NCBI RefSeq assembly: GCF_003217775.1 | Contig: NZ_QJVJ01000012.1 | Coordinates: 1 to 64,000 of the forward strand | From: Paenibacillus flagellatus | GTDB taxonomy: Bacteria; Bacillota; Bacilli; Paenibacillales; NBRC-103111 | DNA: 64,000 nucleotides | Direction: 5' to 3' | Part shown: positions 664 through 30,838 of the stretch, in pieces | Layout of the letters: each line of letters begins with the position of its first letter | How positions within the stretch are numbered: the stretch's first letter is position 1 | The notes under the pieces: generated by a model | What the model was told of the DNA's origin: nothing | Databases searched by the model: none | Seen by the model: the letters and a program-made list of their open reading frames with translations, nothing else | Translations under genes and position numbers: made by a program

Positions 664-667
664 GAGA

Positions 668-2143: not shown

Positions 2144-2146
2144 AAA

Positions 2147-5100: not shown

Positions 5101-6811
5101 AAATGAGATCACAGGAAAGGCTGTTGAACAGGTTAATTCAGTCAGAAGCATCATTCACGAGATTTTTAATGAGAGGGACAAGATTACAAGCACATCAAGA
5201 AGAGAGCTACTGAGGTTTCAGGCTTTTAGGTCTTTTTATCGGCTTCCATTATCAAAGTCTGAAAAAAAGGAGTGGACATACCAATTAAATCGGCTGTTCG
5301 CAGGGGAGATACCTGTCACAATAAACTCATCAATTCATCATGTCAGGTTTAGCGAGCAAGGAACTTCCACGAGCAGGCAGTTGGACTCAGATTATAAAAT
5401 TAACCTGCTGGAGATACGTGATGATTTTATTAATAAGGTTCTAGTAAATTGTTGTGAGGTCAGCTTCGAAAGTAAGTTCGATTCCTTAAGCTTTAAGGGA
5501 AGCAGAAATCCAACTCAACCTTCAACAGATGCTTTCTCAAATTCTAACATTTCATCTGATGAGAGTACGACCCAGCGGGATGTTGAAAGAGTAATCGAGA
5601 AAATCACTGTTGTATCAGATGCAGCAATAGAAAGAAGTTACAAGGCTGATGGAATCAATATTATTGATGATAAAATTGAAACTGCAGAGGCATTTCAAAA
5701 ACTAGCTGGAGATACAACGGCGGAGTTAAAGGACCTAATTATTAAAAATGCGGGTACATTATTTAGAGCAATGCGTGATTATTCAATCGATGTTTCGTCC
5801 GTTGATCCAGAGTTGGCTTTAGTAGCATCAAGATTTATTAGATTCCGAGTAAGACTAAGGGCTGGCGAAACATTGCAAAAGGTTTTGAGGTATCGTACGG
5901 ATATTACTAGAGAAATAGAAGCAGAATCTGAAATTCTTGTTGGGAACGAACGTGGTACTCAATTTGTTTTTGTTGATGTTCCTCGTAAGAGCAGCGATTC
6001 AATTAGGCTTTTAGATTATCTTAATATGCTGCCGCGCGATACGCCGGTTGGAAATCTAAATGTGGTCATTGGACAAGATCCAAGTGGAGAATTTAAGCTG
6101 CTTAACATTGCCCAGGCTCCTCACATGCTAACTGCTGGCTCTACTGGCTCGGGAAAGACAATTTTCCTTTATAGCTTGATTGTGAGCTTAATTTCTCAGT
6201 ATAGCCACGAACAACTTGAACTTGTAATTATTGACCCAAAGCAAACTGATTTTATATTCTTTGACGGTCTGCCGCATCTTCGGAATAAAGAGGTAATACT
6301 GGATGCGGAGAAGGCAGTCGAAATACTTACTGATTTGACTGAGAATGAATTGGAAAGAAGAACTGAACTACTTCGTCAATCGCGTAGTAGAGATTTGTTT
6401 AGCTACAACCAGAAGAATCCTGAAGCACCATTAAAGCCGATCGTTGTAATAATTGATGAATATGCTGACCTTGTTCAGGTAGCAGACCTTGAAGGTCGAA
6501 AAAAGGATTTTGAGAGACAAATGATACGACTGGCTCAACGCTCTAGAAATGTAGGAATACATTTAGTAGTTGCTACCCAGAGACCAAGCGCTGATATTGT
6601 CACTTCGAATCTAAAAACAAACATCCCTTGCAGGATTTCTTTCAGATTACCAGCGCACCAGGATTCAATGACTATTCTGGATTCGCCGGGTGCTGAGGAT
6701 TTGTTAGGTAAAGGCGATATGCTATTCTCACTTAATGGTGATATGACTAGACTTCAGGGACTGTACATCAGTGAAGAGGAATTAGAGAGCTTTTTAGAGA
6801 AGTATATTTAA
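2147..6811 (+). CDS. Large (1,554-aa) cytoplasmic protein with C-terminal FtsK/SpoIIIE-type DNA-translocase ATPase domain; N-terminal ~1,250 aa of unknown function
   Basis: C-terminal motifs: Walker A GSTGSGKT (6137-6160), Walker B VVIIDEYADL (~6443-6472), LVVATQRPSADIVTSNLKTNIPCRISF (6572-), and GAEDLLGKGDMLF, which closely mirrors FtsK LLGxGDMLY. No hydrophobic TM segments at the N-terminus. RBS GGAGG 4 nt upstream. Confidence 0.75.
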   Translation: MSSEIVLSDILAAIVSKRVFNESYGILLKDLPKYSYSKFINMLELRVREQDLAMPKVFFVGFTDVELDELRLELSGQLTYLSLYYSVEEAEDFRNDGDVNSTRIVIVKRAVPKLSSLRWYEQITAEEIYKELCVNAEKQLGGINESLRNMWKSLNSKRIMDRISLERLIDYYQHLTLNDEDIPRDSVEQLFRLGLLIDDSVFVKSNIDSIRQRLIENSRIVSRISNLNKEDRKAIQSNPESDKFHSTRSNILRYYSTRDVSVLGKMKYSEVQELLSKVKNEKTNKKKPVDVDDDIEDSDTDSISGKSRKKSDSPESTAVDLIIEHDTDKVKGLLDEIELKYTEWEKGKASKVNVESENESTRIEFIPEIHNLIQTFVGENSFGGVIKANVKNPIDAFRSLEQFRVRVFDREYIDGIKEIIALFEDEYAEVKGLLEVFNELLSIRSSLVSAAHRLADCPMLKIVESDEILKSCSEYVDLYGRVLKLIKQHYGLLSSFSPKGSKQLIASINSLDMIYIIGEESVHATSTPLFPLYLWKYVELTVRLRESSSSLSEIDKDFLVRASGEIPNPLPTVFVSSYISNKGDRVIPEVSLLGKLPIYSSEQQVNQMLDGLQVIEKSLTKLIKVYPHSSFGLRVAFVNPPSVKHVFDLVKGMLRAKDISLQGAHIHIFKTKETPENWSSFDDVDDTIYSKFALSNDPNFSIKIDTIVLGFDALVELVKKNHFHTVVLFDPCGKSVSNIRRNPLLKIHPLCIPKVFEYDPIADKVEILPASDGNIFSDHHDLIGRLNDKPQGWHHTIVLELETSKQEFNRLLETVPWLIIADANLKNLELSVIGSEKCIFYQSKSFRDVGIYSNDWAKLTKGMDYTIRSIGNYDPREECVGKVLRTIQGLNERGVLSLASSKVDRTFNINHTKGALGTAISAIWSKQNSKNFIIVSLDTELAQSWLDEREEGTFSDLIGITFDEHQAVIDIIEVKTYDGAYQVDQNEITGKAVEQVNSVRSIIHEIFNERDKITSTSRRELLRFQAFRSFYRLPLSKSEKKEWTYQLNRLFAGEIPVTINSSIHHVRFSEQGTSTSRQLDSDYKINLLEIRDDFINKVLVNCCEVSFESKFDSLSFKGSRNPTQPSTDAFSNSNISSDESTTQRDVERVIEKITVVSDAAIERSYKADGINIIDDKIETAEAFQKLAGDTTAELKDLIIKNAGTLFRAMRDYSIDVSSVDPELALVASRFIRFRVRLRAGETLQKVLRYRTDITREIEAESEILVGNERGTQFVFVDVPRKSSDSIRLLDYLNMLPRDTPVGNLNVVIGQDPSGEFKLLNIAQAPHMLTAGSTGSGKTIFLYSLIVSLISQYSHEQLELVIIDPKQTDFIFFDGLPHLRNKEVILDAEKAVEILTDLTENELERRTELLRQSRSRDLFSYNQKNPEAPLKPIVVIIDEYADLVQVADLEGRKKDFERQMIRLAQRSRNVGIHLVVATQRPSADIVTSNLKTNIPCRISFRLPAHQDSMTILDSPGAEDLLGKGDMLFSLNGDMTRLQGLYISEEELESFLEKYI

Positions 6812-6816
6812 TTATA

Positions 6817-6853
6817 GTACACCGTCAGAAACGAACCTGACGGTGTACTTCTT
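6817..6853 (+). terminator. Rho-independent terminator after the FtsK-domain gene
   Basis: Perfect 12-bp stem GTACACCGTCAG / CTGACGGTGTAC with an 8-nt loop, followed by TTCTT. Confidence 0.7.
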
Positions 6854-6880
6854 AGATGGTAGAAAGAGAGTGTGTGTGGT

Positions 6881-7570
6881 GTGTTTGTAAATGAGACAAT
6901 TAAGGGAATCTTTATTAAAGAAAGTAAAAATAGATTTCTATGTACAGTACTGATTAATGGGCTGGTTAATGAGTGCTACGTACCTAGTTCTTCACGCATT
7001 GAGAATTATTTGGAATTGCACAATCGTGAGGTACTATTAACTAAAAATCAAAGTAAAAAAAAACGAACTGAATATTCATTGTTCGCGGTGAAGTATTACA
7101 ATAAGTATATATTAATTAATTTGAATATGATAAATTCAATCGTTCAATTTATGATTCAGGAAAATAAATTAAAAACATTGAGTGGTTTTAGTATCAAACG
7201 AGAACAATTAATTAACAGATACAAAGCCGATTTATTGTTAGAAAATGAAGAAGGAATTCGGATTGTCATTGAAGTCAAAGGGATAATATCTTCTAAACAA
7301 GAGGTCATGTTTCCAAGTATTTATTCTGAAAGAGCAATTTTACAATTATCGAGGATAAAACAATTGCTTCAGGCAGGTGAAAAAGTTTCATATATTATTG
7401 TCTCATTAAGTCCTACAGTTAGAAGAATTATTCTTGATGATACTTACAGGGAATATTATCATAGTTTCAAAGAGTGTCTTGAATTAGGTATGCAAGTTCA
7501 GGCTTTTTCAGTCAATTTTCATGATGGGGTCATTACATTTGGTAAACGAATAAGGATTATTCCTTTATAG
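6881..7570 (+). CDS. sfsA: SfsA-family protein (OB-fold plus PD-(D/E)xK-like nuclease domain; sugar fermentation stimulation protein A homologue)
   Basis: Colinear similarity to E. coli SfsA from memory: RFL...V near the N-terminus, a KKKR basic patch, LSGFS, RIVIEVKGI (SfsA CYIEVKSV) and a C-terminal GxxVxAF segment. GTG at 6881 is preferred (RBS AGAAAGAGAG 10 nt upstream); GTG at 6872 is also possible. Confidence 0.7.
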   Translation: MFVNETIKGIFIKESKNRFLCTVLINGLVNECYVPSSSRIENYLELHNREVLLTKNQSKKKRTEYSLFAVKYYNKYILINLNMINSIVQFMIQENKLKTLSGFSIKREQLINRYKADLLLENEEGIRIVIEVKGIISSKQEVMFPSIYSERAILQLSRIKQLLQAGEKVSYIIVSLSPTVRRIILDDTYREYYHSFKECLELGMQVQAFSVNFHDGVITFGKRIRIIPL

Positions 7571-7580
7571 TGTGTAAAAG

Positions 7581-7611
7581 AAAGAGGCAGAGGCAGGTAA
7601 CCCAGCCTCTT
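7581..7611. terminator. Hairpin between convergent genes (likely terminator for the minus-strand small ORF)
   Basis: AAAGAGGC...GCCTCTTT stem. On the minus-strand RNA it is followed by CUUUUAC. Confidence 0.4.
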
Positions 7612-7821
7612 TCAGGAGGTCCATTCGGATTCATCAATCTCGATATGAATCCATCCAGTTGGGATGATGTGGAGTTTGTTATCAGCGGTCTTCAAACGGT
7701 GAGTCCCAGAGTCACGAACAATAAGTTCAGTTACATTTAAAAGAACTACTTTCCCACCATTTGGAAAAAAATATGTTCTTGAAGATTCCTTAAGTTGTAT
7801 AGGCTTACCGACCTCAGACAT
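7612..7821 (-). CDS. Small hypothetical protein (69 aa), low G+C
   Basis: ATG at 7821 preceded by a GGGGGG RBS at ~7-nt spacing (GTG at 7839 also in frame). No recognisable motif. Confidence 0.35.
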   Translation of the reverse strand: MSEVGKPIQLKESSRTYFFPNGGKVVLLNVTELIVRDSGTHRLKTADNKLHIIPTGWIHIEIDESEWTS

Positions 7822-7910
7822 AATTGTACCCCCCGACACGTCTATATACTACATTATACATCAAAAAGCAATTGCAGTATATATTTCAAAAACGATCAGA
7901 GGTGTAAGGC

Positions 7911-8894
7911 ATGCTGGCATTTTTTAGTTCAAATCATAGACCCCTTTATAAAGAATCAATTTATCGTGCACTGTCCTATCCTAATGGACATGTAATTCAA
8001 CTAAGATATAGGAAGCAATGGTTACATCAAGATGTTGTCAATAAACTTGAGTATTATAAAAAGAATAAAACCGATTGTATCCTTTTCTTTTATGAAAAAA
8101 ACAATCAGAGTTTTCATTCTATTAGAAAGGCGAAGATAATCGATTATAAAATTAGTCCTGTAACAAAGCAATACCATTTCTATATTGAATTTGAGAAATT
8201 TATTGATATGGAAATCGACATATCTACGGCTCAAGGTAAAACACCACTTGATGGCATACACTTTTCAGACTTGGATTTAAAAAACGGAGCAAAGCATGAA
8301 TGGTTTGAGAGAATAGATAATTTGAAAGCGGAGTTTCCAGATCTCGCTTTTTTTAATATTAATGGCTTTTATAATAAAAGTGGAAAAAAGCGTATTAAAA
8401 GCAAGTTTAAAAACTATGAATCAATCTATGAATTGCGAGATAATAAAGATTACAAAATCGAATTGTCGCTTTATAACACATCTTCAAATGATGAGATTTC
8501 TGAGTATACTCGAGATGTAACTGACCCAAACTTAATATTTGTAAACGAACCTTCAAAAATAATAGTTTCTGGTTCTTTGGATGACAGAGAGATAACATTG
8601 AAGACAAATACATTAGAGTCTTCGTCGCTATATTCTTATGTTACGTACAATGCTACTTCTAAGGACGGAAGTGTACAATATTCGGTTCCATTACAGTTTA
8701 AAATAAAACGAAATAGAACTAAGTCTTTCTATTTTGGGATATTATCTGCGAAAGCTGCGAGTTGTGTTGGAGTAGTAAATTACTTCACCAAGTTCAATTA
8801 CATATTGCCTTGCCATCGTTGGATTATTTGGATAGCGATATTTTTGTTTTTTCTTTCAGTAGCTGAGTTATTCCGTGTTTTCAATAAGAAATAA
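7911..8894 (+). CDS. Hypothetical protein with C-terminal transmembrane anchor (327 aa), low G+C
   Basis: RBS GAGGTG 8 nt upstream of the ATG. C-terminal hydrophobic helix WIIWIAIFLFFLSVAELF. No known motif. Confidence 0.5.
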   Translation: MLAFFSSNHRPLYKESIYRALSYPNGHVIQLRYRKQWLHQDVVNKLEYYKKNKTDCILFFYEKNNQSFHSIRKAKIIDYKISPVTKQYHFYIEFEKFIDMEIDISTAQGKTPLDGIHFSDLDLKNGAKHEWFERIDNLKAEFPDLAFFNINGFYNKSGKKRIKSKFKNYESIYELRDNKDYKIELSLYNTSSNDEISEYTRDVTDPNLIFVNEPSKIIVSGSLDDREITLKTNTLESSSLYSYVTYNATSKDGSVQYSVPLQFKIKRNRTKSFYFGILSAKAASCVGVVNYFTKFNYILPCHRWIIWIAIFLFFLSVAELFRVFNKK

Positions 8895-17304: not shown

Positions 17305-20300
17305 TCAGTTCATCAATCCGAGCTTCGTCGCGAGCCGTTTCAGCATGACGGCGGCTTGCGCGCGACTCGTATGGTCTTGCGGGGCGAAGACGGAATCGTC
17401 GACGCCGTTCAGAATGCCTTCGCTGACGGCGAGTGCCGCTGCGTCGCGGGCCCAGCCGCTGATCTTGCCGGCGTCCGCGAACGCCTGCAGCGCGGACGGG
17501 CTGCCCGATGCGGCCCGGCCGTCCACGAAGTCGAACGCGCGTGCGGCCAGCACGGCGAGCTCTTCGCGGCTGATCGCTTGGTTCGGACGGAACGTGCCGT
17601 CCTCGTAGCCTTCGATCAGCCCGGCCTTGGAGGCGGTTGCCGCCGCGGACGCGAACCAGTCGGAGGCGCGGACGTCGCCGAACGACGACGAGCCGTCCTG
17701 CGGAGTCAGACCGAGCGCGCGTACGAGCAGTGCGGCGAATTCGGCGCGCGTAATTGATTGGTCGGGGGCGAACGCCGTGTCGGTAACGCCCTTCACGAGC
17801 AGCTTCGACGCGAGGCGCTCGATGTCCGCTTGCGCCCAATGGCCTTTCATGTCGTCAAACGTCTTGCTGTAGGAGACGACGGTATACAGGCTGTTGCCGG
17901 TCCGCTTGATGATGACGGTCGTTTTGCCGTTCGCTTGGATGAAGCGGGCCGGAACGAACGTCATCTCGCCGGTAGCCGGGTCGATGACGACGGCGGTTGC
18001 GGAACCGGATACGTTGCCGGACAGGGTGAGCGAACGCTCCGCATACCGGCTGCCGAAATCGTCGATCGTCCGCGTCTTGCCGCCGGCTTGCACGCGGAGG
18101 CTGAAGTCGTAGACGTCGCCGATCACTTCGCCGCCTTGCTTTTCCACCGCATCGGCGATGGCGTCCGCTTCCGTGCCGGTTATCTTCTCGAGCGTGATCA
18201 GCACTTGCATGTCTCCCGCTTGAACGCCCAATTCACTCGCTATCGCGTCGATGTCGAGCAGGTCGGCCGGCAGGTGATACGTCACGCCGCCGGATCTGAC
18301 GGTCAGCACGGCCCCGTCCACGGAGTCGGCCGCTTGGTTCAGCGACTGTGCGGGAAGCGATACGATCGCGACCGGCTGGGTATCCGACACTTCGACGATC
18401 AGCTGCTTCGACGTCGATCCTTGCTGCCGCAACGAGGAGATCGCTTTGTTCAGCGCGTCCGCGTCGAGCGTCACCTTCATCGCCGGCTTGCCGCTGTCGT
18501 CCGTCGTCTGAACCGGCGTTGCCGGGATCACGACACCGGATTCCGCAGGAGTCGTCGGTGCCGGTTGGTTCGGAGTCGTCACGACCGGGCCGGACGACGG
18601 CGGTGGCGTCGTGGACGAATCGTCGCTGCTCGATTCCGGCGTGTACGTCAATTGAATCGACTTCTCGTTCGTCTTCATGTTGTCTACGTAAACCGCAAAG
18701 GTGACCGTGTTGACGCCTTGCTGCAAGTTCACCCGTCCGGCGAAATCGCCGTTCGGAGCGACGGCGGCCGCGGTTCCGTTCAAGGTGACGTTAACGGTCG
18801 TTCCGGCACCGAGCACCTTGACGTTGCCGCGCAGCTCCGGGTTCGGGGTCGATACGGTTTTGCCGTCGTAGTTCAGGAAGCCCGAGAGAGCCGCGGCCCG
18901 AATGTCGTCGCCGATATTGTACGAGTTGGCGATGAGCTGGCGCTTCGTGCGCACGCCGTTCAGGTCGAGCGCGGAGATGACCATGCCGCCCGGCGGAATG
19001 GCGCTGTTGTTGTCCTGCGGCGCGCTCCAGTTCCAGTTGATCGCCTGCGATTTGTTGGCCATCTTGACGACTTTGCCCGTCGCGTCCGCGACGACTTCGA
19101 CGCCGAACCGGTTCCCGCCGGTCGAGGTGCCGTACTCGTCGTTGTACACGTTCAGGTCGCCGAGGTTGCGGCTGACGTTGTAGAAGTCGCCCTCGATGAA
19201 CGAGGAAGGACTGCCGGGCTTGCTCATGCCGATCTGGTAATCCTTCACGTACGTTTCGTTATCGATCGACGCTTTGATGATCGGCCAGTTGGCGAGCGAG
19301 GCGTCGAACAGCATGAGCCCGTTCGAGCTGCCGAGCGCCGTCTGGAAAATGGTGCGCTGCAGCTCCGGCGACTGCAGGTCCGCGAGCGCCATGCCCGCGT
19401 ACAGCGGCACTTCGCCGTTGGTCACGATCGAGTCGAGCGTAATGTAACGCTGAATTTCTTGCGGCGTGCTGTAATACGTGCCGACCATCAGGAAGTCCAT
19501 ATGGTCGATGTAGCCGGTTTGGTAATAGCCGTCCGTGTAGATCGAATTCGTCGGGAAGTTCAACCGGCTGTCGTACCGGAAGTTTTTGCTGCCCCAATGG
19601 ACGCCGTTCAAGTAGTACGATTCGAACCAGGCGCCGACGTAGGCGGACGTTTCGATTTTCCGTCCCTTCGAGGCCGTGTACCGGTCGACGAGCTGGCGCG
19701 TTTCTTTCACGAAGCTCTCGATCGTGCCGGAACGGAACTCCCACCAATCCTGGATGAGCGGACCGTCTACCCGTCTGCCGTCCTCATAGCGGAAAATATC
19801 TTGAGGCCAAGCGTTCAGCTGCTTGCCGCGCTGCTGCAAAAACGCCTCGAATTTCTGCTTCGTTACGTCGCTGAAATCGGCGGTTTCGTTGTCGTACCGG
19901 CCGCGGTCGAGAATGATGCCGTCGACGTCGTAGTTTTTCAGCACTTCCTCGAACGTCTTCAGCTGGAAGTCGCGCACCTCGTCGTTCGCCGGGTTGACGA
20001 ACAGGACGGCCGCGCCGTTGGCGGCGCCGGACAAGCCGCGCTGGCCGTAGGCGCTCTCGCGAAGCCGCTTGATCTCTCCGCCGTCGTCGACGCGGTAGAC
20101 GCGCTCCTCCCAGTCGAGATGCTGATCGATGATGGCGAAGTCCTTCACGGCGATCGAGCCTTCGGCGAAGACGTTAAACGCCGCGTGCACCTTCAGGCCG
20201 AGCGCATGGCTGTGCGTCAGGAACAGCTCCAGCAGGTCGAGATCGGGGTTGGAGCCCTGCCGATCGACCGCGGTCATCTCGCTGACGTACGGACGATGGG

Positions 20301-21975
20301 TCAGATCGTTTTTCTTGTACGAGACGAAGCCTTCCACGCCTTTGACGTCAAAGGCGACATCGGTAACGCCGGCGTTCTTCGCCTTGGTCAGGAAGTCGAG
20401 GACGGCTTGGCTCGACTGGAATTTCTTCGCGTTCGACGCCTGGTCCACCCACAAAATGACTTGCTTCTCGGCGGGCAGGGACGGCCGGCTGTACACGATG
20501 ACGGACTTCTTGTCGTGCTGGGTGCCGCCCTTCGAAACCGTGACATCGATATAGTTCGGGCCGGCCGTAAGCGCCGCTTGGTGGGAGAACGTGCCGTTCG
20601 CTCCGATGGCGACGGTCGTTCCGCCGATCTGCAGGACGGCGCCGTCCGGGTTCGTCACCTTGCCGGCAATCGTCGCGGTCGTCGACGGCGTCGTGTACAT
20701 GGTCAGGCCGTCCAGCTGCAGGCGCGGAATGGCGCCGAGACCGGTCATGAGCTCGCTGACGGGAACGACGTTGCCGTTTTTGCGCAGCTTGACGACGTCG
20801 CCTACATTGAATTTGGTCGCCAAATATTTTTTGAAATCCAGCGTGGCGTAGCTGTTGTCCTGCGCCATGACGACGTATCCGCCTTGCGGAATGTCGAGCT
20901 CGCCGCCTACCCAGGACGGCGGGCTGGTGCCGTTCGCCTTGTTGATCATCTTCATCACTTTGCCGGACGCGTCGACTTGAATCGCGACGTTGGTAGCCGG
21001 AATCGTAATCTTCGACGCGTATTCGGTCGTGAACAGGGCGATGATGTTCGGGATGCCGGTCACATCTTTGTCGATGTAATTGATCGGCTTCTTCGGCCCT
21101 TCGACGACGATCGTGATGTCCTCCGGCGGCGCCTCGATCTCGATCAGGTCGCCGACGTGATACGTAATCACGACCGATTCGCTCTGCAGCACGTCCGCGT
21201 TGCGGAGCAGCTTGACGGGAATCGTATTGGCGCCCGCGGTCAAGGTGACCGGCTGGCTGAACGAGCCGTCGGGCTGCACGCTAGCGTCCGCGTCGCCCAC
21301 CTTCACCGCAAGGCCGGTGCCGGACACATAGTTCAGCACTTTTCCCTGAATGGTGTACGTAGCCGTCGTCACGGTCGTGCCGGATGCGGTCGAAAGTTGG
21401 AGAGTCGGCTGGGCCGGATCGGGCAAAAAGTCTGCCGCGGTTACCCGTACGCCTCCGCGCTCGAGGGCAATGGTGTCGCCGGCTTGAAACGTATTATAGA
21501 GCGCCTTGCGGAAGTTTTTATCGAGCCAATTGTCATCGGATGCCAGAAGGACGAAACCTCCGGGCGGAATCGTGACATTTTGGTCCGGGTCCCAGCTGTA
21601 CGGTTTATTGTTGCTGGGATTGATGCCTCCCTGGGGGCCGACCATCTTCAATACGTTGCCCTGCGCATCCACTTGGATAGCGGCGTTCGTCGTTTTCACG
21701 AAGACGGCATTGTTGTTGCCGGAGACGTTCGTTACCGACGTACCGCTCGTGAAGAGAGCCACGTAATCTTTCTTCTGCGGCGCAGCGTCCACATTCACGT
21801 TCACATGGTTCAATTTCAGCTTCCTGCTCCCGTCCAACGACACCGCATACACGTCGTCGGTTACGGAGCCGCTCCCGGCATCGGCCGCCAGCGCGCCCGT
21901 CCCGAAAGTCGGGAACAGCGACACCAGCAGACAGACGATCAGGAACACATTCATTCGGTACCGTCCGGTTCTCAT
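17305..21975 (-). CDS. Large cell-surface protein: signal peptide, glycoside-hydrolase-like (GHL10/DUF187, YngK-like) domain, Ig-like domains, three C-terminal SLH domains
   Basis: RBS AGGAGAAGG 6 nt upstream of the ATG at 21975. Signal peptide present. C-terminal SLH repeats (WFASAAATASKAGLIEGYEDGTFRPNQAISREE...). Central VILWVDQASN...VTDVAFDVKG resembles a GHL10 TIM barrel. Confidence 0.7.
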   Translation of the reverse strand: MRTGRYRMNVFLIVCLLVSLFPTFGTGALAADAGSGSVTDDVYAVSLDGSRKLKLNHVNVNVDAAPQKKDYVALFTSGTSVTNVSGNNNAVFVKTTNAAIQVDAQGNVLKMVGPQGGINPSNNKPYSWDPDQNVTIPPGGFVLLASDDNWLDKNFRKALYNTFQAGDTIALERGGVRVTAADFLPDPAQPTLQLSTASGTTVTTATYTIQGKVLNYVSGTGLAVKVGDADASVQPDGSFSQPVTLTAGANTIPVKLLRNADVLQSESVVITYHVGDLIEIEAPPEDITIVVEGPKKPINYIDKDVTGIPNIIALFTTEYASKITIPATNVAIQVDASGKVMKMINKANGTSPPSWVGGELDIPQGGYVVMAQDNSYATLDFKKYLATKFNVGDVVKLRKNGNVVPVSELMTGLGAIPRLQLDGLTMYTTPSTTATIAGKVTNPDGAVLQIGGTTVAIGANGTFSHQAALTAGPNYIDVTVSKGGTQHDKKSVIVYSRPSLPAEKQVILWVDQASNAKKFQSSQAVLDFLTKAKNAGVTDVAFDVKGVEGFVSYKKNDLTHRPYVSEMTAVDRQGSNPDLDLLELFLTHSHALGLKVHAAFNVFAEGSIAVKDFAIIDQHLDWEERVYRVDDGGEIKRLRESAYGQRGLSGAANGAAVLFVNPANDEVRDFQLKTFEEVLKNYDVDGIILDRGRYDNETADFSDVTKQKFEAFLQQRGKQLNAWPQDIFRYEDGRRVDGPLIQDWWEFRSGTIESFVKETRQLVDRYTASKGRKIETSAYVGAWFESYYLNGVHWGSKNFRYDSRLNFPTNSIYTDGYYQTGYIDHMDFLMVGTYYSTPQEIQRYITLDSIVTNGEVPLYAGMALADLQSPELQRTIFQTALGSSNGLMLFDASLANWPIIKASIDNETYVKDYQIGMSKPGSPSSFIEGDFYNVSRNLGDLNVYNDEYGTSTGGNRFGVEVVADATGKVVKMANKSQAINWNWSAPQDNNSAIPPGGMVISALDLNGVRTKRQLIANSYNIGDDIRAAALSGFLNYDGKTVSTPNPELRGNVKVLGAGTTVNVTLNGTAAAVAPNGDFAGRVNLQQGVNTVTFAVYVDNMKTNEKSIQLTYTPESSSDDSSTTPPPSSGPVVTTPNQPAPTTPAESGVVIPATPVQTTDDSGKPAMKVTLDADALNKAISSLRQQGSTSKQLIVEVSDTQPVAIVSLPAQSLNQAADSVDGAVLTVRSGGVTYHLPADLLDIDAIASELGVQAGDMQVLITLEKITGTEADAIADAVEKQGGEVIGDVYDFSLRVQAGGKTRTIDDFGSRYAERSLTLSGNVSGSATAVVIDPATGEMTFVPARFIQANGKTTVIIKRTGNSLYTVVSYSKTFDDMKGHWAQADIERLASKLLVKGVTDTAFAPDQSITRAEFAALLVRALGLTPQDGSSSFGDVRASDWFASAAATASKAGLIEGYEDGTFRPNQAISREELAVLAARAFDFVDGRAASGSPSALQAFADAGKISGWARDAAALAVSEGILNGVDDSVFAPQDHTSRAQAAVMLKRLATKLGLMN

Positions 21976-22230: not shown

Positions 22231-22303
22231 CAAAAAAGCCTCCGGTTTCGGGAACGAAACGGCGCCGGCGTGCAGCGCATCCCCGCTCCTTTTTTCGGAG
22301 GCT
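22231..22303 (-). terminator. Terminator structure downstream of the DUF4157 toxin-like gene (nested hairpins; U-run on minus RNA)
   Basis: Outer stem AGCCTCCGG/TCGGAGGCT. Inner stem CCGGTTTCG-GGAA-CGAAACGG. The minus-strand RNA ends ...CCGGAGGCUUUUUUG. Confidence 0.55.
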
Positions 22304-22351: not shown

Positions 22352-24370
22352 TTACACCCTCGATAATTCCTCGTAAGCAATCTTGTACTTTCTGCCGTTA
22401 CCCGGATAGCTTCTGCGGATCAGTTCTTTCGCTTCTTCTTGTGCGTCCTCGTCCTGCTTGGACCTTGCCTCTACATATTTCAGGAGAATAACGGTGATTT
22501 CCGCCCCGATCTGCAAAACGAGCCCGCCGATCGCGCCACGGAAGTCTTCCGGGTTTTTCCGCTTGCGGATCAGGTCGATCAGCCTCCGGTCGTATTCGTG
22601 CGGCTTCATGCGGCTGTAGGCCAGACCGTGCTTCTTCATCGACTTGAGGAAGCTGCTCGAGTTGAGCTTCTTCTGGTTGGCGCGGATGCTCTGCTGCGCC
22701 GTCTTGTTCCCGCGCGGAACGTAGTCCGGGAGCTCCTGCACCACCTGCTCCTCCGCCATCTCCGTCCGGTAGGGCGACATCGGGGCCCACATCTCCTCGA
22801 CCTCGTCCATTTCGATCGGGTTGACGACCTCGGTTTGTTGAACCGCCTTCAGCTGGTCGGTGAACGACAAGCTCGTATCGACGCTGGACAGTCCGTGGAA
22901 GCCCAGGCTCGCATTAGCGTGCGGGATGGAGGCGGACATCGATTGGTCGCGCTGCTTTTTCAACTCCAGTGCGGCGTTGATCAACTGGATGCACATCTGC
23001 TCCACTCGGACGCGAGGCGCCTCCTCCTGCTCCCAAGCTTCCTTCACGTCGTTCATCAGCGTGGCCGCCTCGCTCGCTTGATAGATCAGCTTATACAGCT
23101 TGTCGGTTTCGGCCATAACGGTTTCGAAGCGCTTCTTGCGCTCTTGCGGAGCGTTTTGCAGCGCCTGGCCCAATTCGGCCGGGAATCCGTAATCGGCCAG
23201 CTGGAGCTTCGTCTCCAGATCCTTCAAAACGTCCAGCTCGCGCTCGATGACGTCGTTGGCATCCTTCTCCTCCGTGCTCAAGGCGGTGGCCTTGGTAATG
23301 GACGTCAAGCTCTTCTTCAAGTCGGCGTCGTTCACGTCGAGCAAGTAGTCGCTCAAGCCCATCTTGTCGAGCACCGCTTGGATCGGCTTCATGACCGCCG
23401 CCGCCGAGCTCAGGTCGTCCGTATTCGTCAGGACGACCTCCTTTCGCGCCACGTGGGTCCAAGCCGCCGCGCCGTCGCGGTCCGACCGGTTCACGCCGGC
23501 TCCGCTCAGGGCCGGAACGTTTCGCAAGCCGGTGCTACCGCCTTTATAGTAGGACGGCGGGGGAATATCGATATCCACTTTGCCGTCGGTGCCCGGTACC
23601 GCGGTTTTCGTGTTCGGGTCCAACTGATGCCACTCGCAATGAATAGCGGACGTATAGTAAGGCTTATGTTGCGCCGCATTATCCCGCAGCTGGTCGGTCC
23701 ATACCTTGTAGTACACCCAGCCGTGATGATCGTTGACGATCGACTTGATCTTGTCTTCGGCTTTCTCCAAATGCTGCGTATTGGCGGCTTTGGGGATGGC
23801 GGCCAGGTTGCGGACGTCGTTGCCGGGACCGCCCAAGTTTTCGTTCAGCAGGTGGCCGGCCACATAGTCCGTTTTGTTGCCGGCGCGTTTTTCCTGGGCT
23901 TTGCGTTTGTCGACCCATTTGCCGCTCGTCCCCGGCTTGCTGCCCAACGGATGGTCCGGTCCGAGCGGGTTGGCGGTCATCTCGGTCCCTTCGTCGCGAG
24001 ATGCGTTCTGCCAAGTTATAGCCGTCGTCCAAGGCGACGTCGGCGAACCGTCGACGGCCGCGCCCCGGCCGACCCCGGTCCGGAACGGCACCCATCGATG
24101 GTGGGTGTTCGGATCGGGAATTTCGTCGTACTTCAGCATGTTGCGCTGGATTCGCGCGCCCGGTCTGCCCGGCGCTTGGCGGTCGCGGAGCAGCGAGCCT
24201 ACGGCCCGGTTGCCGATGGAGCGCTGCAGGTAGCCGACCGTCGCCGGCGACGGGGCGTAGAGTCCGGGAGGCGATTCGGCGATCGCCGACGCGTCTTCCT
24301 TCCGCTCCGGGCTTTTGCCCGCGGACGCTTCCTTCGGTTGCTTGGCGCTTGGCGCCGATTGGCGGGACAT
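22352..24370 (-). CDS. DUF4157-domain (LQRxxGNRA motif) polymorphic-toxin-like protein with a putative HNH/ββα-Me-like nuclease region and long helical C-terminus
   Basis: N-terminal VGYLQRSIGNRAVGSLL, the DUF4157 signature. Middle segment AGHLLNENLGGPGNDVRNLAAIPKAAN has an H..N..N ββα-Me-like pattern. Start ATG at 24370 with RBS AAGGGGGAA (TTG at 24415 also in frame). Confidence 0.6.
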   Translation of the reverse strand: MSRQSAPSAKQPKEASAGKSPERKEDASAIAESPPGLYAPSPATVGYLQRSIGNRAVGSLLRDRQAPGRPGARIQRNMLKYDEIPDPNTHHRWVPFRTGVGRGAAVDGSPTSPWTTAITWQNASRDEGTEMTANPLGPDHPLGSKPGTSGKWVDKRKAQEKRAGNKTDYVAGHLLNENLGGPGNDVRNLAAIPKAANTQHLEKAEDKIKSIVNDHHGWVYYKVWTDQLRDNAAQHKPYYTSAIHCEWHQLDPNTKTAVPGTDGKVDIDIPPPSYYKGGSTGLRNVPALSGAGVNRSDRDGAAAWTHVARKEVVLTNTDDLSSAAAVMKPIQAVLDKMGLSDYLLDVNDADLKKSLTSITKATALSTEEKDANDVIERELDVLKDLETKLQLADYGFPAELGQALQNAPQERKKRFETVMAETDKLYKLIYQASEAATLMNDVKEAWEQEEAPRVRVEQMCIQLINAALELKKQRDQSMSASIPHANASLGFHGLSSVDTSLSFTDQLKAVQQTEVVNPIEMDEVEEMWAPMSPYRTEMAEEQVVQELPDYVPRGNKTAQQSIRANQKKLNSSSFLKSMKKHGLAYSRMKPHEYDRRLIDLIRKRKNPEDFRGAIGGLVLQIGAEITVILLKYVEARSKQDEDAQEEAKELIRRSYPGNGRKYKIAYEELSRV

Positions 24371-24437
24371 GGGCGTTCCCCCTTTGCGGGCGTAATCGAC
24401 CTTTTCTTTTTCCAATATACTACATGTCTAAACGGAA

Positions 24438-24547: not shown

Positions 24548-26428
24548 GTGGCCAAGAAGCAGTTCAAGGCGGAATCGAAGCGATTGCTGGAAATGATGAT
24601 CAACTCCATCTACACGCAGCGGGAAATTTTTCTGCGGGAGCTGATCTCGAACGCAAGCGACGCCATCGACAAAATTTATTACAAGTCGCTGGCCGACGAT
24701 CAGCTGGTATTCGACAAGGACAACTACTACATCAAGATTACGGCCGATAAGGACAAGCGGACGTTGACGATTTCCGATACCGGGATCGGGATGACGAAGG
24801 AGGAGCTCGAGAACAACCTCGGCGTCATCGCGAAGAGCGGCTCGCTCGCGTTCAAGCAGGAGAACGAGCTGAAGGACGGGCACAACATTATCGGCCAGTT
24901 CGGCGTCGGCTTTTACTCCGCCTTCATGGTTGCGGACGTGGTGACGGTGATCAGCCGGGCGCTCGGCAGCGACGAGGCGTACAAGTGGGAGTCCGAAGGC
25001 GCGGACGGCTACACGATCGAGCCGAGCGAGAAGGCGACGGTCGGCACCGACATCATCATGAAGATCAAGCCGAACACCGAGGACGACCGGTACGACGAGT
25101 TTTTGGAGGAATACCGGCTGAAGTCGATCGTCAAGAAATATTCGGACTTCATCCGCTATCCGATCAAGATGGACGTGAAGGGCAAGCGGCCGAAGGAAGG
25201 CAGCGACAACGAATTCGAGGACTACGAGGAAGAGCAGACGATCAACAGCATGGTCCCGATTTGGCGCAAAAACAAGAGCGAGCTGACGGCCGAGGATTAC
25301 GAGAACTTCTACCGCGAGAAACGGTACGGCTTCGACAAGCCGCTGAAGCATCTCCATATCAGCGCGGACGGCGCCGTCGTGTACAACGCGATTTTGTTCA
25401 TCCCGGAGAACACGCCGTTCGACTATTACACGAAGGAATACGAGAAGGGGCTCGAGCTGTACTCCAACGGCGTGCTCATCATGAACAAGTGCGCGGACCT
25501 GCTCCCCGACTACTTCAGCTTCGTGAAAGGGATGGTCGACTCCGAGGACTTGTCGCTCAACATTTCGCGCGAGATGCTGCAGCACGACCGGCAGCTGACG
25601 CTTATCGCGAAGAACATCAAGAGCAAGATCAAGAGCGCGCTGCAAAGCATGCTGAAGGACGAGCGGGAGAAGTACGAGACGTTCTACAAGGCGTTCGGCC
25701 GCCAGCTCAAGTTCGGCGTCTACAGCGACTACGGCGCGAACAAGGAGCTGCTGCAGGACCTGCTGCTGTTCCACTCCTCGAAGGAGAAAAAGCCGGTAAC
25801 GCTCGACGAGTACGTGTCGAGAATGCCGGAGGACCAGAAATATATTTACTACGCGTCCGGCGATTCGATCGAGCGGCTCGAGAAGCTGCCGCAAACCGAG
25901 CTCGTCTTGGATAAGGGCTACGAAATTCTGTACTTCACCGACGATATCGACGAATTCGCGATCAAGATGCTGATGACGTACAAGGAGAAGGAGTTCAAGT
26001 CGGTATCGAGCGGCGATCTCGGAATCGAGGCGGATGCGAACGACAGCGCGTCGGAAGCCGAGGACGGCGACAGCAAGGAGCTGTTCGAGCGGATGAAGGC
26101 GATTCTGGACGGCAAGGTAACGGGCGTCAAGGCGTCGAAGCGGCTCAAGTCGCATCCGGTCTGCCTGTCCACCGAGGGCGAGCTCTCGATCGAGATGGAG
26201 AAAATATTGAAGGCGATGCCGAACGGCCAAGACGTCAAAGCCGACAAGGTGCTCGAAATCAACGTGAACCACGACGTGTTCCGGTCGCTCAAGGCGGCGT
26301 TCAAATCCGACGAGGAGAAGCTGCGGCTGTACACGAACCTGCTGTACCACCAGGCGCTGCTCATCGAAGGGCTGCCGATCCAGGACCCGGTGGAGTTCAC
26401 GAACGACATTTGCAAAGTGATGGTGTGA
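24548..26428 (+). CDS. htpG: Molecular chaperone HtpG (Hsp90)
   Basis: N-terminal [12 protein letters not shown] (ATP-lid), GTIAKSG-like, [12 protein letters not shown]. Length 626 aa. GTG start with an AAAGGGGA RBS. Confidence 0.95.
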
Positions 26429-26473: not shown

Positions 26474-26574
26474 GCGCTTGCGATCCGGGGCTTGCCATAC
26501 TTTCGCCATGTTCGGACGTCGCGGGATAGCGGATAATGCAGGTACGATCGGAGAGAAAAGAAGGGGTGCGGACG

Positions 26575-27888
26575 ATGACGAAGACCGGATATTTGCGATG
26601 CGAGGTGTGCGCCAAAGTGACCCAGGTGAAAATCGAGGTCGGCTACTTGGACGCCTTCCCGCTGTACGTCAACTGCGGCCATTGCGGGACGCTGTTCTCG
26701 GGCCGGTATGCCAAAAACGACGAGGAGGTGACGGCCTCCGCCGTGTTCCGCAATGCGACGGAGATCGACGCTTCGGAGGCGGATACGGTCGATTACTTCT
26801 GCGACGCGTCCGGGGAGCTGATCATGCGAAAGGTCGCCCCGGCGCAGCGCGCGGCGGATTTGATGGTTCCTCCGGTCTGGATGGCGTTCCACCGCCGGCT
26901 TGGACCGAACGGGATGAAGGCGCTGTTCGGCCGGATGGTCGAGCTTCACCGTACCGTCAACGGGCCGGCCGCGCACGAGTGGAGCCGGGTGCTGGACCTA
27001 TGGTTCAACGGCAAGCACGCGTACTTGTCGGCGCAGCTGGCGGACGTGCTGGACGGGACGCCGCTTGCGGGCCCGGTAAGCGCCGGGCGTTACGTGCAGG
27101 CGATCCGCAAGCTGACGCGGACGCTGTTCGCGCCCTTGTACGGGTCGGAGCGGAACGGCGAATTCGTCCGGCGCGTCTCGGCTTCGTTGCGGACGTTGAA
27201 GATTACCCGGGAAGCCGGCTTGAAGGCTTATTTGCGCCGTCTGCACGAGATGGGGTTGTTCGATTCGTGCGAGAAAATCGCCTACGGACAGCTGAGAAAC
27301 GGGCTCGGCCGCTTCGAGCAGCTTATTCCGGCGTTCACGCTGAGCGAGCTGACCGATGCCGAGCGGGCGGCTTTGTTCGCCCCGGATTCCGCATACGGGA
27401 TGACGACGCTGTCGTTCGAGGACATCAAGTTTCTGTACGTCGACCTGTTCGAAAGCGTGGTAAAGGTTTTGCCCGTCATCGTCGGGCTGAACAATTTGCT
27501 CCACCGGGGCAGTCATCACGCGTTCTTGAACGGCGGCGCGACCGGCAAAAAGACGAGCGTCTCGTCGCTGGAGCAGTATGTCGACTTGTATACGGCGGCC
27601 GACAAGATGAAGCTGATCGACTACGGGGAGGCGTTCTCCGTCGCGATGCACGGCGAGCTGAACAACAAGCTGCGCAATGCGATCGGCCATTATGCTTACC
27701 GTTACGACAGCTTGGAGCAGAAGATCGTCTACGACAACGGCCGCAAGGTCATGTCGCTGCTGCAGTTCGGCTACGGCTGCTACGAGCTGATCTTGACGCT
27801 GCTCGACCTGTTCGACCTGACGATGTTTTTGCACGAGGTGCACGACCATTACTTCCCTGACGAAAATGTGTCGAATAACGTGATTTGA
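26575..27888 (+). CDS. Hypothetical protein with N-terminal Zn-ribbon (CEVC...CGHCG) and C-terminal HEPN-like Rx4H motif (KLRNAIGHYAY)
   Basis: ATG at 26575 with an AGAAGGGG RBS. CxxC...CxxC in the first 40 aa. RNAIGH fits the HEPN Rx4-6H catalytic motif. No other assignable family. Confidence 0.45.
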   Translation: MTKTGYLRCEVCAKVTQVKIEVGYLDAFPLYVNCGHCGTLFSGRYAKNDEEVTASAVFRNATEIDASEADTVDYFCDASGELIMRKVAPAQRAADLMVPPVWMAFHRRLGPNGMKALFGRMVELHRTVNGPAAHEWSRVLDLWFNGKHAYLSAQLADVLDGTPLAGPVSAGRYVQAIRKLTRTLFAPLYGSERNGEFVRRVSASLRTLKITREAGLKAYLRRLHEMGLFDSCEKIAYGQLRNGLGRFEQLIPAFTLSELTDAERAALFAPDSAYGMTTLSFEDIKFLYVDLFESVVKVLPVIVGLNNLLHRGSHHAFLNGGATGKKTSVSSLEQYVDLYTAADKMKLIDYGEAFSVAMHGELNNKLRNAIGHYAYRYDSLEQKIVYDNGRKVMSLLQFGYGCYELILTLLDLFDLTMFLHEVHDHYFPDENVSNNVI

Positions 27889-27961: not shown

Positions 27962-30838
27962 ATGAGTCACATGAGGAAGACCGGCAGGGCCATCATCCTG
28001 CTGCTGATCTTGCTGATCGCGGTGCCTTTCCAGGCGTTTGCGGCCGGCGCTCCGTCCGCCGCATCCGATATCGGCGGCCACTGGGCGGAAAAGGAATTGA
28101 GCGGCTGGATCGGCAAAGGGCTGTTGTCCGGCTACGAGGACGGCACGTTCCAGCCGGACCGCAGCATCAGCAGAGCGGAGTTTTTCGCGCTCGTCAATCG
28201 TTCGTTCCGCTTTACGCAGGAGGCTTCCGTTTCGTTTGCCGATCTGGACGCGTCCCATTGGGCGGTTGCCGAGCTGAAGCGCGCGAAGGCGGCGGGCTAT
28301 GCCGACGGGTATCCGGACGGCACGATTCGCCCGGATCGGCCGATCAGCCGGGAAGAGGCGGCCGTCGTGCTCCGCAGCGTGCTGAAGCTGCAGGAGGACG
28401 CCGCGAAGGCGGGCGCGTTCCAAGACGCGGCGCAATTCGCCGACTGGAGCAAGGGCTCGATCGGCGCACTGGCCGCGAAAGGGTATTTGTCCGGCTACGA
28501 GGACGGCACGTACAAGCCGGGCCGGTCGATGACCCGCGCCGAGATGGTCGCGGTGCTCGATCGCGCCGTCGCCGATGCGGTCCCTACGACGGTTTATGAT
28601 GCAAAAGGTACATACGGTCCCGAATCCGGGACGACGACGATCGCGGGCAACGTCACGATCAGCGCTCCGGGCGTCACGCTGCGCAATACGGTTATCGAGG
28701 GCGATCTGCTGCTGGCGGAATCGATCGGCGAAGGCGACGTTTTCCTGAAAAACGTCACCGTCAAAGGCGCTACGACGGTCAACGGCGGCGGCGCGCGCTC
28801 CGTTCACTTCGAGGACTCCGTGCTGCTTACGGTTATCGTGAACAAAGCGGACGGCAGCATCCGGATCGTAGCGGAAGGGTCCACCAGCGTTCAGCAGTTC
28901 ACGGTGCAATCGAGCGCGCTGCTCGAGTCGCGCGGTACGAGCACGATCGCCGACGTCGTTCTGTCCAGTCTGCTTCCTTCAGGGGCTCAAGTCTCGATGG
29001 CCGGTCAGTTCAACTCGGTCGACGTGCAGGCGACGAGCGTCCGGGTCAGCTTGACGGAAGGCGCGATTCAACAGCTGACCGTCTCGCAAGGGGCGGATCG
29101 CTCGACGCTGCAGGTCGGTACGGGAGCGTCGGTCGCGCAGCTCGTGCTGAACGCCGCCGCTTCGGTCGTCGGCCAAGGCTCGATCGGACAGGCGACCGTC
29201 AACGCGAACGGCTCCAGCTTCGAGCGCAATCCCGGCGCGATGACGACCGGCGAAGGCGTGCAAGTGGGAGTGGGCACGGCTGCGCCTTCCGGCGGCGGGT
29301 CCTCCGACGGCGGTTCTTCCGGGGACGGATCGTCCGATGACGACAGCGGATTCGTCACCGGCTTCGGCGGGAAAATCGTCGACGTCTCGAATCAGCCGGT
29401 CGCCGGCATGACCATCCAATTCCGCCGCGGGCTGGACAACAAGGACGGCGACGTCGTCGCGACGGTCGTCACCGACGCCGAAGGACGCTACACCGTCGAC
29501 CTGGCACCCGGCATTTATACGGGCGAGCTGGTCAAGGAAGGATTTATTACAACTTATCTGATCGGCGTCTCGGCTTCGAACGTCCGCAATACCGCCGAGG
29601 ATGCGACCGCGATCCGCGTAGCGGCGGCGAACGAAATCCGTATCGTGCTCTCATGGGGCGAACGTCCTCGCGATCTCGATTCGCATCTCGTCGGGCCGAC
29701 GCCGACGGGCGGCGTGTTCCACACGTGGTACTCGGATAAGGTATACACCGTAGGCTCGGTCGTCTACGACGATCTGGACCATGACGACACGACGTCCTAC
29801 GGACCCGAAACGACGACGATTCGCCATACGGTGGACGGCCTGTACCGCTTCTACGTTCATAACTACTCCGGCGAGACGAACATGCGGGATTCGGGTGCCC
29901 ATATCGAGGTGTACGAAGGCTCCACGACGACGCCGGCCAAGACGTACGATATCCCGACGGGAACGGGGACGGAGCGGTACTGGACCGCATTCGAAATGAC
30001 GATCGCGAACGGCTCGATCGCCTCCTTCACCGACATCAACCAGTTCTATGCCACCGAATCGGCCGCGCAGGGCAGCTTGGGCGCGGGGATGACCGACGCC
30101 ACGGTAACGTCCTCCGTATACGGTATCGATCAAAACGTGCGCGAAATTACGGTACCGGCCAACGTGCCGGCGGAAAGCTTCAAGGCGGGACTTTCCGCCG
30201 CGCCGGGCGCTACGCTCAAGGTGTATCAAGCGGACGGCGTGACGCCGCGTACGGACATCGTAGCGGACGGAGACAAAGTCGTCGTCCGAGCCGCCGACGG
30301 AAGGACGTCCCGGACCTATACGGTACGGGTAAGCTCCGCGCCTACGGTGACGTCGCTCACATACGAGCCGGCGGGTCCGATCGTCTTGTACGATACGACG
30401 TCGCCGATCGGCATCCGGCTTCTGGCGACCGTCGGCACGACCGTGACGGACGTGACGTATCAGGCGACTTATGCGTCCAATCGCCCGGATATTGCGGACA
30501 TCGATCCGAACGGCGTTATTACGGCTGTCACATCCGGCTCGACGGTCGTGAGCGCCGTGTACGGCGGCTTGACGAAGGACATTCCGGTCATCGTTCTGCT
30601 CGCTCCGTCGTTGGCCGTATCGTCGTCGGACGCGTCGACGCTGACGGCGTCCGGACTCGTCTCGGGAGCCGCGGTCGGCCTGTACGACGCAAGCTCCGAT
30701 ACGATCGTCGGCAGCCCTTACACGGCGGGTCAGGACGGTACGGCGACCATACCGGCCGTTCCGGCAGGCACTTATTATATCATCCAGACTTATCAAGGCT
30801 TCGAGAGCGGTCGCTCGGCGACCGTGACCGTCAACTGA
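27962..30838 (+). CDS. S-layer/SLH-domain surface protein (three N-terminal SLH domains, beta-helix and Ig-like regions)
   Basis: Signal peptide. SLH repeats GYEDGTFQPDRSISRAEF, GYPDGTIRPDRPISREEA, GYEDGTYKPGRSMTRAEM. Promoter-like TTGTCG-N17-TACTAT upstream. Confidence 0.8.
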   Translation: MSHMRKTGRAIILLLILLIAVPFQAFAAGAPSAASDIGGHWAEKELSGWIGKGLLSGYEDGTFQPDRSISRAEFFALVNRSFRFTQEASVSFADLDASHWAVAELKRAKAAGYADGYPDGTIRPDRPISREEAAVVLRSVLKLQEDAAKAGAFQDAAQFADWSKGSIGALAAKGYLSGYEDGTYKPGRSMTRAEMVAVLDRAVADAVPTTVYDAKGTYGPESGTTTIAGNVTISAPGVTLRNTVIEGDLLLAESIGEGDVFLKNVTVKGATTVNGGGARSVHFEDSVLLTVIVNKADGSIRIVAEGSTSVQQFTVQSSALLESRGTSTIADVVLSSLLPSGAQVSMAGQFNSVDVQATSVRVSLTEGAIQQLTVSQGADRSTLQVGTGASVAQLVLNAAASVVGQGSIGQATVNANGSSFERNPGAMTTGEGVQVGVGTAAPSGGGSSDGGSSGDGSSDDDSGFVTGFGGKIVDVSNQPVAGMTIQFRRGLDNKDGDVVATVVTDAEGRYTVDLAPGIYTGELVKEGFITTYLIGVSASNVRNTAEDATAIRVAAANEIRIVLSWGERPRDLDSHLVGPTPTGGVFHTWYSDKVYTVGSVVYDDLDHDDTTSYGPETTTIRHTVDGLYRFYVHNYSGETNMRDSGAHIEVYEGSTTTPAKTYDIPTGTGTERYWTAFEMTIANGSIASFTDINQFYATESAAQGSLGAGMTDATVTSSVYGIDQNVREITVPANVPAESFKAGLSAAPGATLKVYQADGVTPRTDIVADGDKVVVRAADGRTSRTYTVRVSSAPTVTSLTYEPAGPIVLYDTTSPIGIRLLATVGTTVTDVTYQATYASNRPDIADIDPNGVITAVTSGSTVVSAVYGGLTKDIPVIVLLAPSLAVSSSDASTLTASGLVSGAAVGLYDASSDTIVGSPYTAGQDGTATIPAVPAGTYYIIQTYQGFESGRSATVTVN

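Follow-up and report, generated by a model that had tools for sequence, protein, structure and literature searches.

A leader-bearing predicted nuclease of Paenibacillus flagellatus and its proposed link to extracellular contractile injection systems

Results

A complete gene followed by a terminator-like hairpin

The DNA analysed here, referred to as the window, comprises the first 64,000 nucleotides (nt) of contig NZ_QJVJ01000012.1 from Paenibacillus flagellatus (RefSeq assembly GCF_003217775.1). Our subject is a minus-strand gene within it that encodes a protein of 672 amino acids (aa), made up of an N-terminal leader, a predicted nuclease domain and a helical tail, some relatives of which are encoded beside extracellular contractile injection systems (eCIS). 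The coding sequence (CDS) runs exactly as it had been delimited in an initial annotation made from the sequence alone, from 24370 to the stop codon at 22352-22354. GC contents of 0.60, 0.43 and 0.80 at the three codon positions (the last is given as GC3 below) are coding-like, as in genuine genes of this genome with its 60% GC, and the product is 100% identical to an NCBI hypothetical protein of P. flagellatus (WP_110842608.1 / PYI51486.1). A mechanical list of open reading frames (ORFs) extends the frame to a TTG codon at 24415 (22352..24415, minus strand). We favour the ATG at 24370, because the ribosome-binding site AAGGGGG, read from the sequence, precedes it at a spacing of 7 nt. The gene and htpG (24548-26428) are arranged divergently. 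Past its stop codon lies a terminator-like hairpin, for which a hairpin scan of the region returned an inner hairpin at 22278-22262, and the next gene beyond it, starting at 21975, encodes a large protein with SLH domains. No coding-like ORF is present from the hairpin to this gene. A candidate immunity gene for the nuclease was not found, as the stretch from the stop codon to the terminator-like hairpin has no ORF, and the nuclease gene appears to be monocistronic. Table 1 lists the features discussed in the following.

Table 1 Features of the leader-nuclease-tail gene and of a second leader-bearing gene in the window
Feature	Position	Strand	Basis
Complete CDS, leader-nuclease-helical-tail protein	22352..24370	-	ORF list, GC3 0.80, identity to WP_110842608.1
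Ribosome-binding site AAGGGGG	24378..24384	-	Read from sequence, 7 nt before ATG
N-terminal leader, aa 1-75, hydrophilic, charge +6, predicted disordered	24146..24370	-	pLDDT <50, hydropathy
Leader motif V45-GYLQRSIGNRAVGSLL-61, core L48 Q49 R50 x x G53 N54 x A56	24188..24238	-	Homologue conservation, profile search
Second short motif R73-I-Q-R76 at leader/cargo boundary	24140..24151	-	[IV]QR conserved in homologues
Predicted ββα-Me DNA/RNA non-specific endonuclease domain, aa ~80-290	23501..24133	-	Confident model, fold matches
Predicted catalytic ββα core, aa 169-214	23729..23866	-	Invariant residues, secondary structure
All-helical C-terminal tail, aa 317-672	22355..23422	-	AlphaFold2 model
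Terminator-like hairpin GCCTCCG...CGGAGGC, then TTTTTT	22232..22302	-	Read from sequence, ~50 nt past stop codon
Second orphan protein, 717 aa, leader LQRTVGNRAI at aa 55-64, unrelated cargo	38541..40694	+	Window motif scan

A conserved N-terminal leader motif that is separate from DUF4157

An AlphaFold2 model was built from 25 homologues and has a mean predicted local distance difference test score (pLDDT) of 80. Residues 1-75 of this model score below 50 and are unstructured except for a low-confidence helix over a conserved motif. A hydropathy scan of the first 80 aa revealed no hydrophobic N-terminal stretch; since the maximum over 19 residues is as low as 0.37, we consider a signal peptide to be absent. 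The net charge of the leader is +6. The motif, VGYLQRSIGNRAV, occupies aa 45-57 and includes, at aa 48-57, the string LQRSIGNRAV that had already caught attention in the initial annotation. Its Q, R, G, N and A residues are invariant in the leader-bearing homologues. When 1.84 billion cluster representatives were searched exhaustively with a 45-column profile of the motif, at least 1,811 of them, each standing for a cluster formed at 50% identity, were matched at E<=1e-3. In the best 144 matches to the profile, the motif starts at a median position of aa 53 (range 9-188) and conforms to the consensus (P.DVL.)LQRTIGNRAVGRLL. A word-index search of 5.8 billion proteins with the 45-aa leader alignment yielded 85 candidates, only one of which was a match.

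The string LQRSIGNRAV had been taken for the hallmark of DUF4157 (PF13699, now eCIS_core), a domain described as a marker of eCIS toxins (PMC8213781), and the protein had been labelled accordingly as DUF4157-type. Neither the hallmark nor the label can be retained. The 672-aa protein has no match to PF13699 even at E<=1 (gathering score 22 bits; positive controls in the same library reached 101-106 bits), an NCBIfam search added nothing to the Pfam result, and the protein contains no HExxH zinc-binding motif. Furthermore, in the 201-aa eCIS core protein of P. elgii (L024) the motif occupies aa 39-47 and PF13699 aa 83-155, which places the motif outside the PF13699 model; in bona fide eCIS core proteins the leader lies ~35 aa upstream of the domain. 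Most motif-bearing proteins do without PF13699, which is present in 36 of 91 (40%) when those of at least 250 aa are considered. The other cargo among these 91 proteins comprises Endonuclea_NS_2 (five proteins), EndoU, ADP-ribosyltransferases, Peptidase_M91, an actin-fragmin-type kinase, OTU and peptidoglycan-binding domains. The LQRxIGNxAV motif is a separate N-terminal leader that is often, but not always, found ahead of DUF4157.

Within the family of the nuclease itself, both the leader motif and the DUF4157 domain with its HExxH signature occupy the N-terminal position ahead of the same nuclease. HExxH occurs in 10 of the 26 homologues and LQRxxGN likewise in 10, a single protein (P0013) being counted in both sets, and judged by these sequences the two N-termini are mostly alternatives. 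About 20 aa past the leader motif, [IV]QR recurs in almost every member of the family, DUF4157-bearing ones among them, and may be where processing or docking takes place. In homologues of the proteobacterial and Bacteroidetes type (P0010, P0023, P0025 and P0026), the same nuclease is preceded not by LQRxIGNxAV but by a different, repeated leader, AQRRLxxxANxS...LQ, which fits a system-specific leader. Leader type seems to track the host lineage and not the cargo. A text search of the literature for strings of the LQRxIGNxAV type found no description of the motif, and according to PMC11297309 and a preprint on the injection system AlgoCIS (bioRxiv 10.64898/2026.05.27.728243) no conserved leader sequence is known.

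A protein with the same leader, encoded as an orphan in the genome of a spore-forming member of the Bacillota (P0062, 1,168 aa; L087 10001-13507), carries a HopBF1-type kinase domain. This kinase type is known from a plant-pathogen effector and hints at eukaryotic targets for the leader class.

A predicted nuclease of the EndA/NucA type

The leader is followed by a confidently modelled α/β domain (aa ~80-290) that matches ββα-Me nucleases by fold. Foldseek comparisons against the PDB and against viral models both rank nucleases first, and the nearest structural neighbours are secreted or competence nucleases. As far as the model goes, the domain is a ββα-Me fold. Pfam reports PF13930 (Endonuclea_NS_2) at aa 154-216 with 24.7 bits and an E value of 2.9e-5 (gathering score 27 bits); the relatives P0014 and L032 exceed the gathering score with 28.2 and 28.5 bits, respectively, and many homologues have a precomputed match to this family. 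Sequence searches of the PDB with a profile of the full family and a profile of the nuclease domain returned no nuclease, yielding compositional helical matches and a chance match to OspC3.

Residues L136-GPDH140, Y169, G172-H173-L-L-N176, G180-G181, N188, N197, E205 and N213 are invariant over the 25 homologues. The segment AGHLLNENLGG...N...AIPKAAN (aa 171-197), in which a ββα-Me pattern had been recognised from the sequence alone, proved to be the invariant core of the family and to fall on a strand-strand-helix unit in the model (strands at 169-173 and 189-193, helix at 194-214), with H173 at the end of the first strand and N197 and E205 within the helix. The accompanying term HNH-like holds insofar as it denotes a ββα-Me segment; the type is EndA/NucA and not HNH proper. 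The HNH family (PF01844) was considered and rejected, PF13930 being the sole nuclease family reported at E<=1. The spacing of H173, N197 and E205 presumably matches that of H89, N119 and E127 in Serratia nuclease. By this analogy, H173 is likely to be the general base and N197 and E205 are likely to form the metal site, and from the conserved residues the catalytic apparatus looks intact. We infer a 'DNA/RNA non-specific endonuclease' of the EndA/NucA type (PF13930) that is predicted to be active.

The family is very sparse and patchy, with 26 relatives among 5.8 billion sequences, and a scan of viral contigs revealed no relative. In one subgroup (P0011-P0014; L004 10130-11950), to which the P. 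turpanensis protein encoded beside an eCIS operon belongs, two nuclease-like domains are arranged in tandem. Of these, the first is degenerate and lacks the histidine of GHLLN, while the second is intact.

An all-helical tail

The remainder of the protein was modelled as all-helical (aa 317-671), the longest helix spanning 60 residues (432-491). The initial annotation had assigned a long coiled-coil tail. The helical character is borne out, but the final ~170 aa are modelled as many short helices and not as one long coil. The tail was also compared with tape-measure proteins, and no significant match emerged. It might serve as an in-cis inhibitor that takes the place of an immunity protein.

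Relatives of the protein at injection-system loci

Three relatives are encoded next to eCIS genes. The gene for P0014 from P. turpanensis, which has the same leader and lacks DUF4157, sits immediately upstream of an operon for an AAA+ ATPase, a Pvc16_N protein, sheath and tube; the gene for L032 from P. methanolicus, with leader and PF13930, starts ~5.5 kb upstream of a sheath gene; and that for P0024, a homologue of the DUF4157 type, directly follows a run of baseplate and spike genes. The best 80 matches to the P. turpanensis sheath, which stem from Paenibacillaceae and further Bacillota, were surveyed for the leader. Seven of these eCIS loci have, at most 10 kb from the sheath gene, a total of eight leader motifs in an N-terminal position. 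The reversed-sequence control gave none over 1.6 Mb of eCIS flanks. The ORFs concerned encode, in P. elgii, P. tyrfis, Brevibacillus and Cohnella, small core proteins with DUF4157, in Cohnella also an uncharacterised effector of 664 aa, and in P. methanolicus the leader-PF13930 nuclease.

The closest homologues of the P. flagellatus protein are those of P. ginsengarvi (63% identity) and P. ferrarius (48%). Both species have an eCIS sheath locus and both homologues are orphans; eCIS genes are absent up to 10 kb from the P. ferrarius copy. In P. flagellatus, domain scans of the proteins encoded in the 64-kb window detected no genes for contractile injection or secretion, as the initial annotation had already stated.

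A second leader-bearing protein in the window

A motif scan of the window revealed two leader-bearing proteins only, the nuclease and a protein encoded 14 kb away (38541-40694), and these two share nothing except the leader. The second protein has an EEP-like middle part (a faint match) with a recognisable SDHRP motif, and a weakly OTU-like C-terminus (20.1 bits versus a gathering cut-off of 23.3). The OTU-like end is of the cysteine protease type. The gene that follows (40810-41337) is DinB/MST-like and has an unusually low GC3.

Discussion

The gene is genuine, intact and probably of the kind that encodes eCIS-associated toxins, with a leader-nuclease-tail layout. In this respect the initial annotation was right in regarding the product as a toxin-like modular protein of a kind linked to contractile injection systems. 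On balance, and with moderate confidence, we take the protein to be an orphan nuclease effector of the eCIS type, i.e., an eCIS-associated toxin (EAT) of a phage-tail-like extracellular contractile injection system. It would consist of a disordered, positively charged leader of ~75 aa bearing LQRxIGNRAVxxLL, a Mg2+-dependent DNA/RNA non-specific endonuclease of the ββα-Me (EndA/NucA) type and a helical tail of ~350 aa. The leader would be recognised by the loading machinery, which may be the AAA+ ATPase, the spike/DUF4157 core protein or both; the effector would then be packed into the inner tube, and contraction would expel it into a target cell, where nucleic acids would be degraded. The loading role of the leader is proposed by analogy with AlgoCIS, in which a disordered N-terminal domain is required for tube loading and DUF4157 is dispensable (bioRxiv 10.64898/2026.05.27.728243). 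Nuclease activity and toxicity are predicted; in the CIS of Streptomyces davawensis the active effector is a DUF4157-linked EndA-like nuclease (PMC11126660). An eCIS would be expected in P. flagellatus itself; in Paenibacillus, 26 of 262 genomes have been recorded as having one (PMC8213781 and supplement).

Several observations weigh against this interpretation. The window contains no eCIS gene, most homologue contexts that were inspected are orphan as well (P0010, P0015 and P0004), and in only seven of the 80 eCIS loci does an ORF with the leader lie no farther than 10 kb from the sheath gene. P. flagellatus is not represented in the top 120 relatives (>=71% identity) that were listed for the P. 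ginsengarvi sheath; nor does it figure in the 80 best-matching loci for the P. turpanensis sheath or in the supplements of three eCIS surveys. The analogy on which the loading role rests is with cargo from another phylum. With regard to the nuclease, the PF13930 score of the protein is under the Pfam gathering score, and AGH stands in place of the RGH of EndA and Serratia nuclease, so that activity is a prediction. Finally, an active cytoplasmic nuclease that lacks an immunity partner is unexplained.

There is a different view, which we regard as unlikely, though the most serious of the alternatives: the nuclease may act on the cell that makes it and not be injected into another organism, as a cytoplasmic factor of death or DNA degradation, for example in lysis, sporulation or regulated cell death, possibly together with a cytoplasmic CIS as in Streptomyces, or it may be an orphan relic that outlived the loss of an injection system. 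The missing immunity gene and the apparently monocistronic arrangement with its own terminator are in keeping with such a role, as is the failure to find P. flagellatus among the best 80 sheath loci or the best 120 sheath proteins. Moreover, Streptomyces CIS work in the cytoplasm of the producer, where DNA release involves an EndA-like effector (PMC11126660), and in the proposal of Geller et al., a toxin that has no immunity gene may be made just before lysis (PMC8213781). A relic, however, would hardly be expected to have kept its ORF intact, its coding bias strong and its catalytic residues complete, and a self-directed function fits poorly with the OTU-like and EEP-like domains of the neighbouring leader protein and the HopBF1-type kinase of P0062, which point to foreign and possibly eukaryotic targets.

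Lower still in probability, we consider it doubtful that the protein is a polymorphic toxin that leaves the cell by another route, either through a type VII secretion system (T7SS) or upon release by lysis, with a leader unrelated to contractile systems. T7SSb systems are common in Bacillota, the phylum to which Paenibacillus belongs, and a source labels P0019, a distant homologue, as 'Type VII secretion system protein'. EsaD/EssD of Staphylococcus aureus (PDB 8gun) is delivered in this way, with EsaE as its chaperone and EsaG as its immunity protein. All of these features are absent at the P. flagellatus locus, which has neither an EsaG-like immunity gene nor any downstream ORF. Neither LXG/WXG nor another N-terminal domain of T7SS substrates was detected with Pfam and NCBIfam, the large FtsK-like protein encoded in the window is SspH-like and not EssC (see below), and the leader co-occurs with PF13699 and eCIS operons and not with T7SS genes. 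It is highly improbable that, in the manner of EndA, NucA or Serratia nuclease, the protein is secreted or does housekeeping work, be it in the scavenging of nutrients, in competence or in DNA repair, even if its nearest structural neighbours are secreted or competence nucleases: such a role is difficult to reconcile with the lack of a signal peptide or hydrophobic N-terminus, the sparse and patchy family, N-termini that are modular and swapped with DUF4157, and relatives adjoining eCIS operons.

If the protein is an eCIS-type effector, the best comparison is with EATs and with Cgo1 and Cgo2, cargo proteins of AlgoCIS (PMC8213781; PMC8894135; bioRxiv 10.64898/2026.05.27.728243). Like these, it has a disordered hydrophilic leader followed by a variable toxin region, has relatives encoded beside eCIS operons and lacks an immunity gene, as many EATs do (PMC8213781). 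It differs from them in lacking DUF4157, in being encoded with no eCIS in the window, in having its nuclease within the first third of the chain, ahead of a tail of 350 aa, and not at the C-terminus, and in the sharply conserved motif of its leader, none being reported in the cited papers. Tme of S. davawensis (PMC11126660) likewise carries an EndA-like ββα-Me nuclease, the toxicity of which depends on one histidine, and this CIS effector also has long helical or coiled regions. In contrast to the P. flagellatus protein, Tme exceeds 2,200 aa, has DUF4157, transmembrane helices, a tape-measure-like region (for which the tail studied here gave no significant match) and a C-terminal nuclease, and is encoded within the CIS cluster. 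From EndA, NucA, Spd1 and Serratia nuclease (PF13930, PF01223; PDB 3owv, 4qgo, 2xh3, 1g8t) the protein is set apart by the lack of detectable sequence similarity to the solved structures, by AGH instead of RGH, by the absence of a signal peptide and by an extra conserved element, PLGPDH (aa 135-140).

The nuclease itself is an otherwise ordinary toxin type, and the conserved leader motif is the more interesting by-product of this work. It ties together the orphan nuclease, a second, unrelated orphan effector, the DUF4157 core proteins of Paenibacillaceae eCIS and hundreds of other proteins with toxin domains. We tentatively suggest, as a possibility that we would not yet call probable, that LQRxIGNxAVxxLL near residue 50 is a tag addressing proteins to one large CIS lineage independently of DUF4157. 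It would then flag orphan effectors around the chromosome, of which the window alone would contain two, and AQRRLxxxANxS would be its parallel in proteobacterial and Bacteroidetes systems. Cargo recognition is the least understood step of CIS function and the one most relevant to engineering protein delivery. If the suggestion is true, a short portable tag could predict full effector repertoires, including genes far from the machine, and could be used for loading engineered cargo.

Other features of the window

Otherwise, the window consists of ordinary chromosomal DNA with genes for RtcB, an SPFH-domain protein, ABC transporters, a UvrA-like protein, phosphotransferase system (PTS) components, NOS and SLH proteins. 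A low-GC island at 148-8894 (0.36-0.40 versus ~0.6 elsewhere) encodes SspF-, SspG- and SspH-like proteins and an SfsA-type nuclease (6872-7570); it probably represents a defence module, gained by horizontal transfer, for sensing phosphorothioate modification of DNA. Its 1,554-aa FtsK/HerA-like protein (2147-6811) was considered as a candidate EssC, an identity that was rejected on a score of 236 bits as an SspH-like protein, compared with 91 bits for EssC against a cut-off of 778. Just downstream of htpG, an ORF for 450 aa (26536-27888, plus strand) shows strong coding bias and matches nothing in Pfam or NCBIfam, and its product contains an N-terminal CxxC...CxxC segment resembling a zinc ribbon. 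Four very large SLH surface proteins are encoded at 17305-21975 (minus strand, directly downstream of the nuclease gene), 27962-30838 (plus strand), 41399-45385 (minus strand) and 60149-62917 (minus strand).

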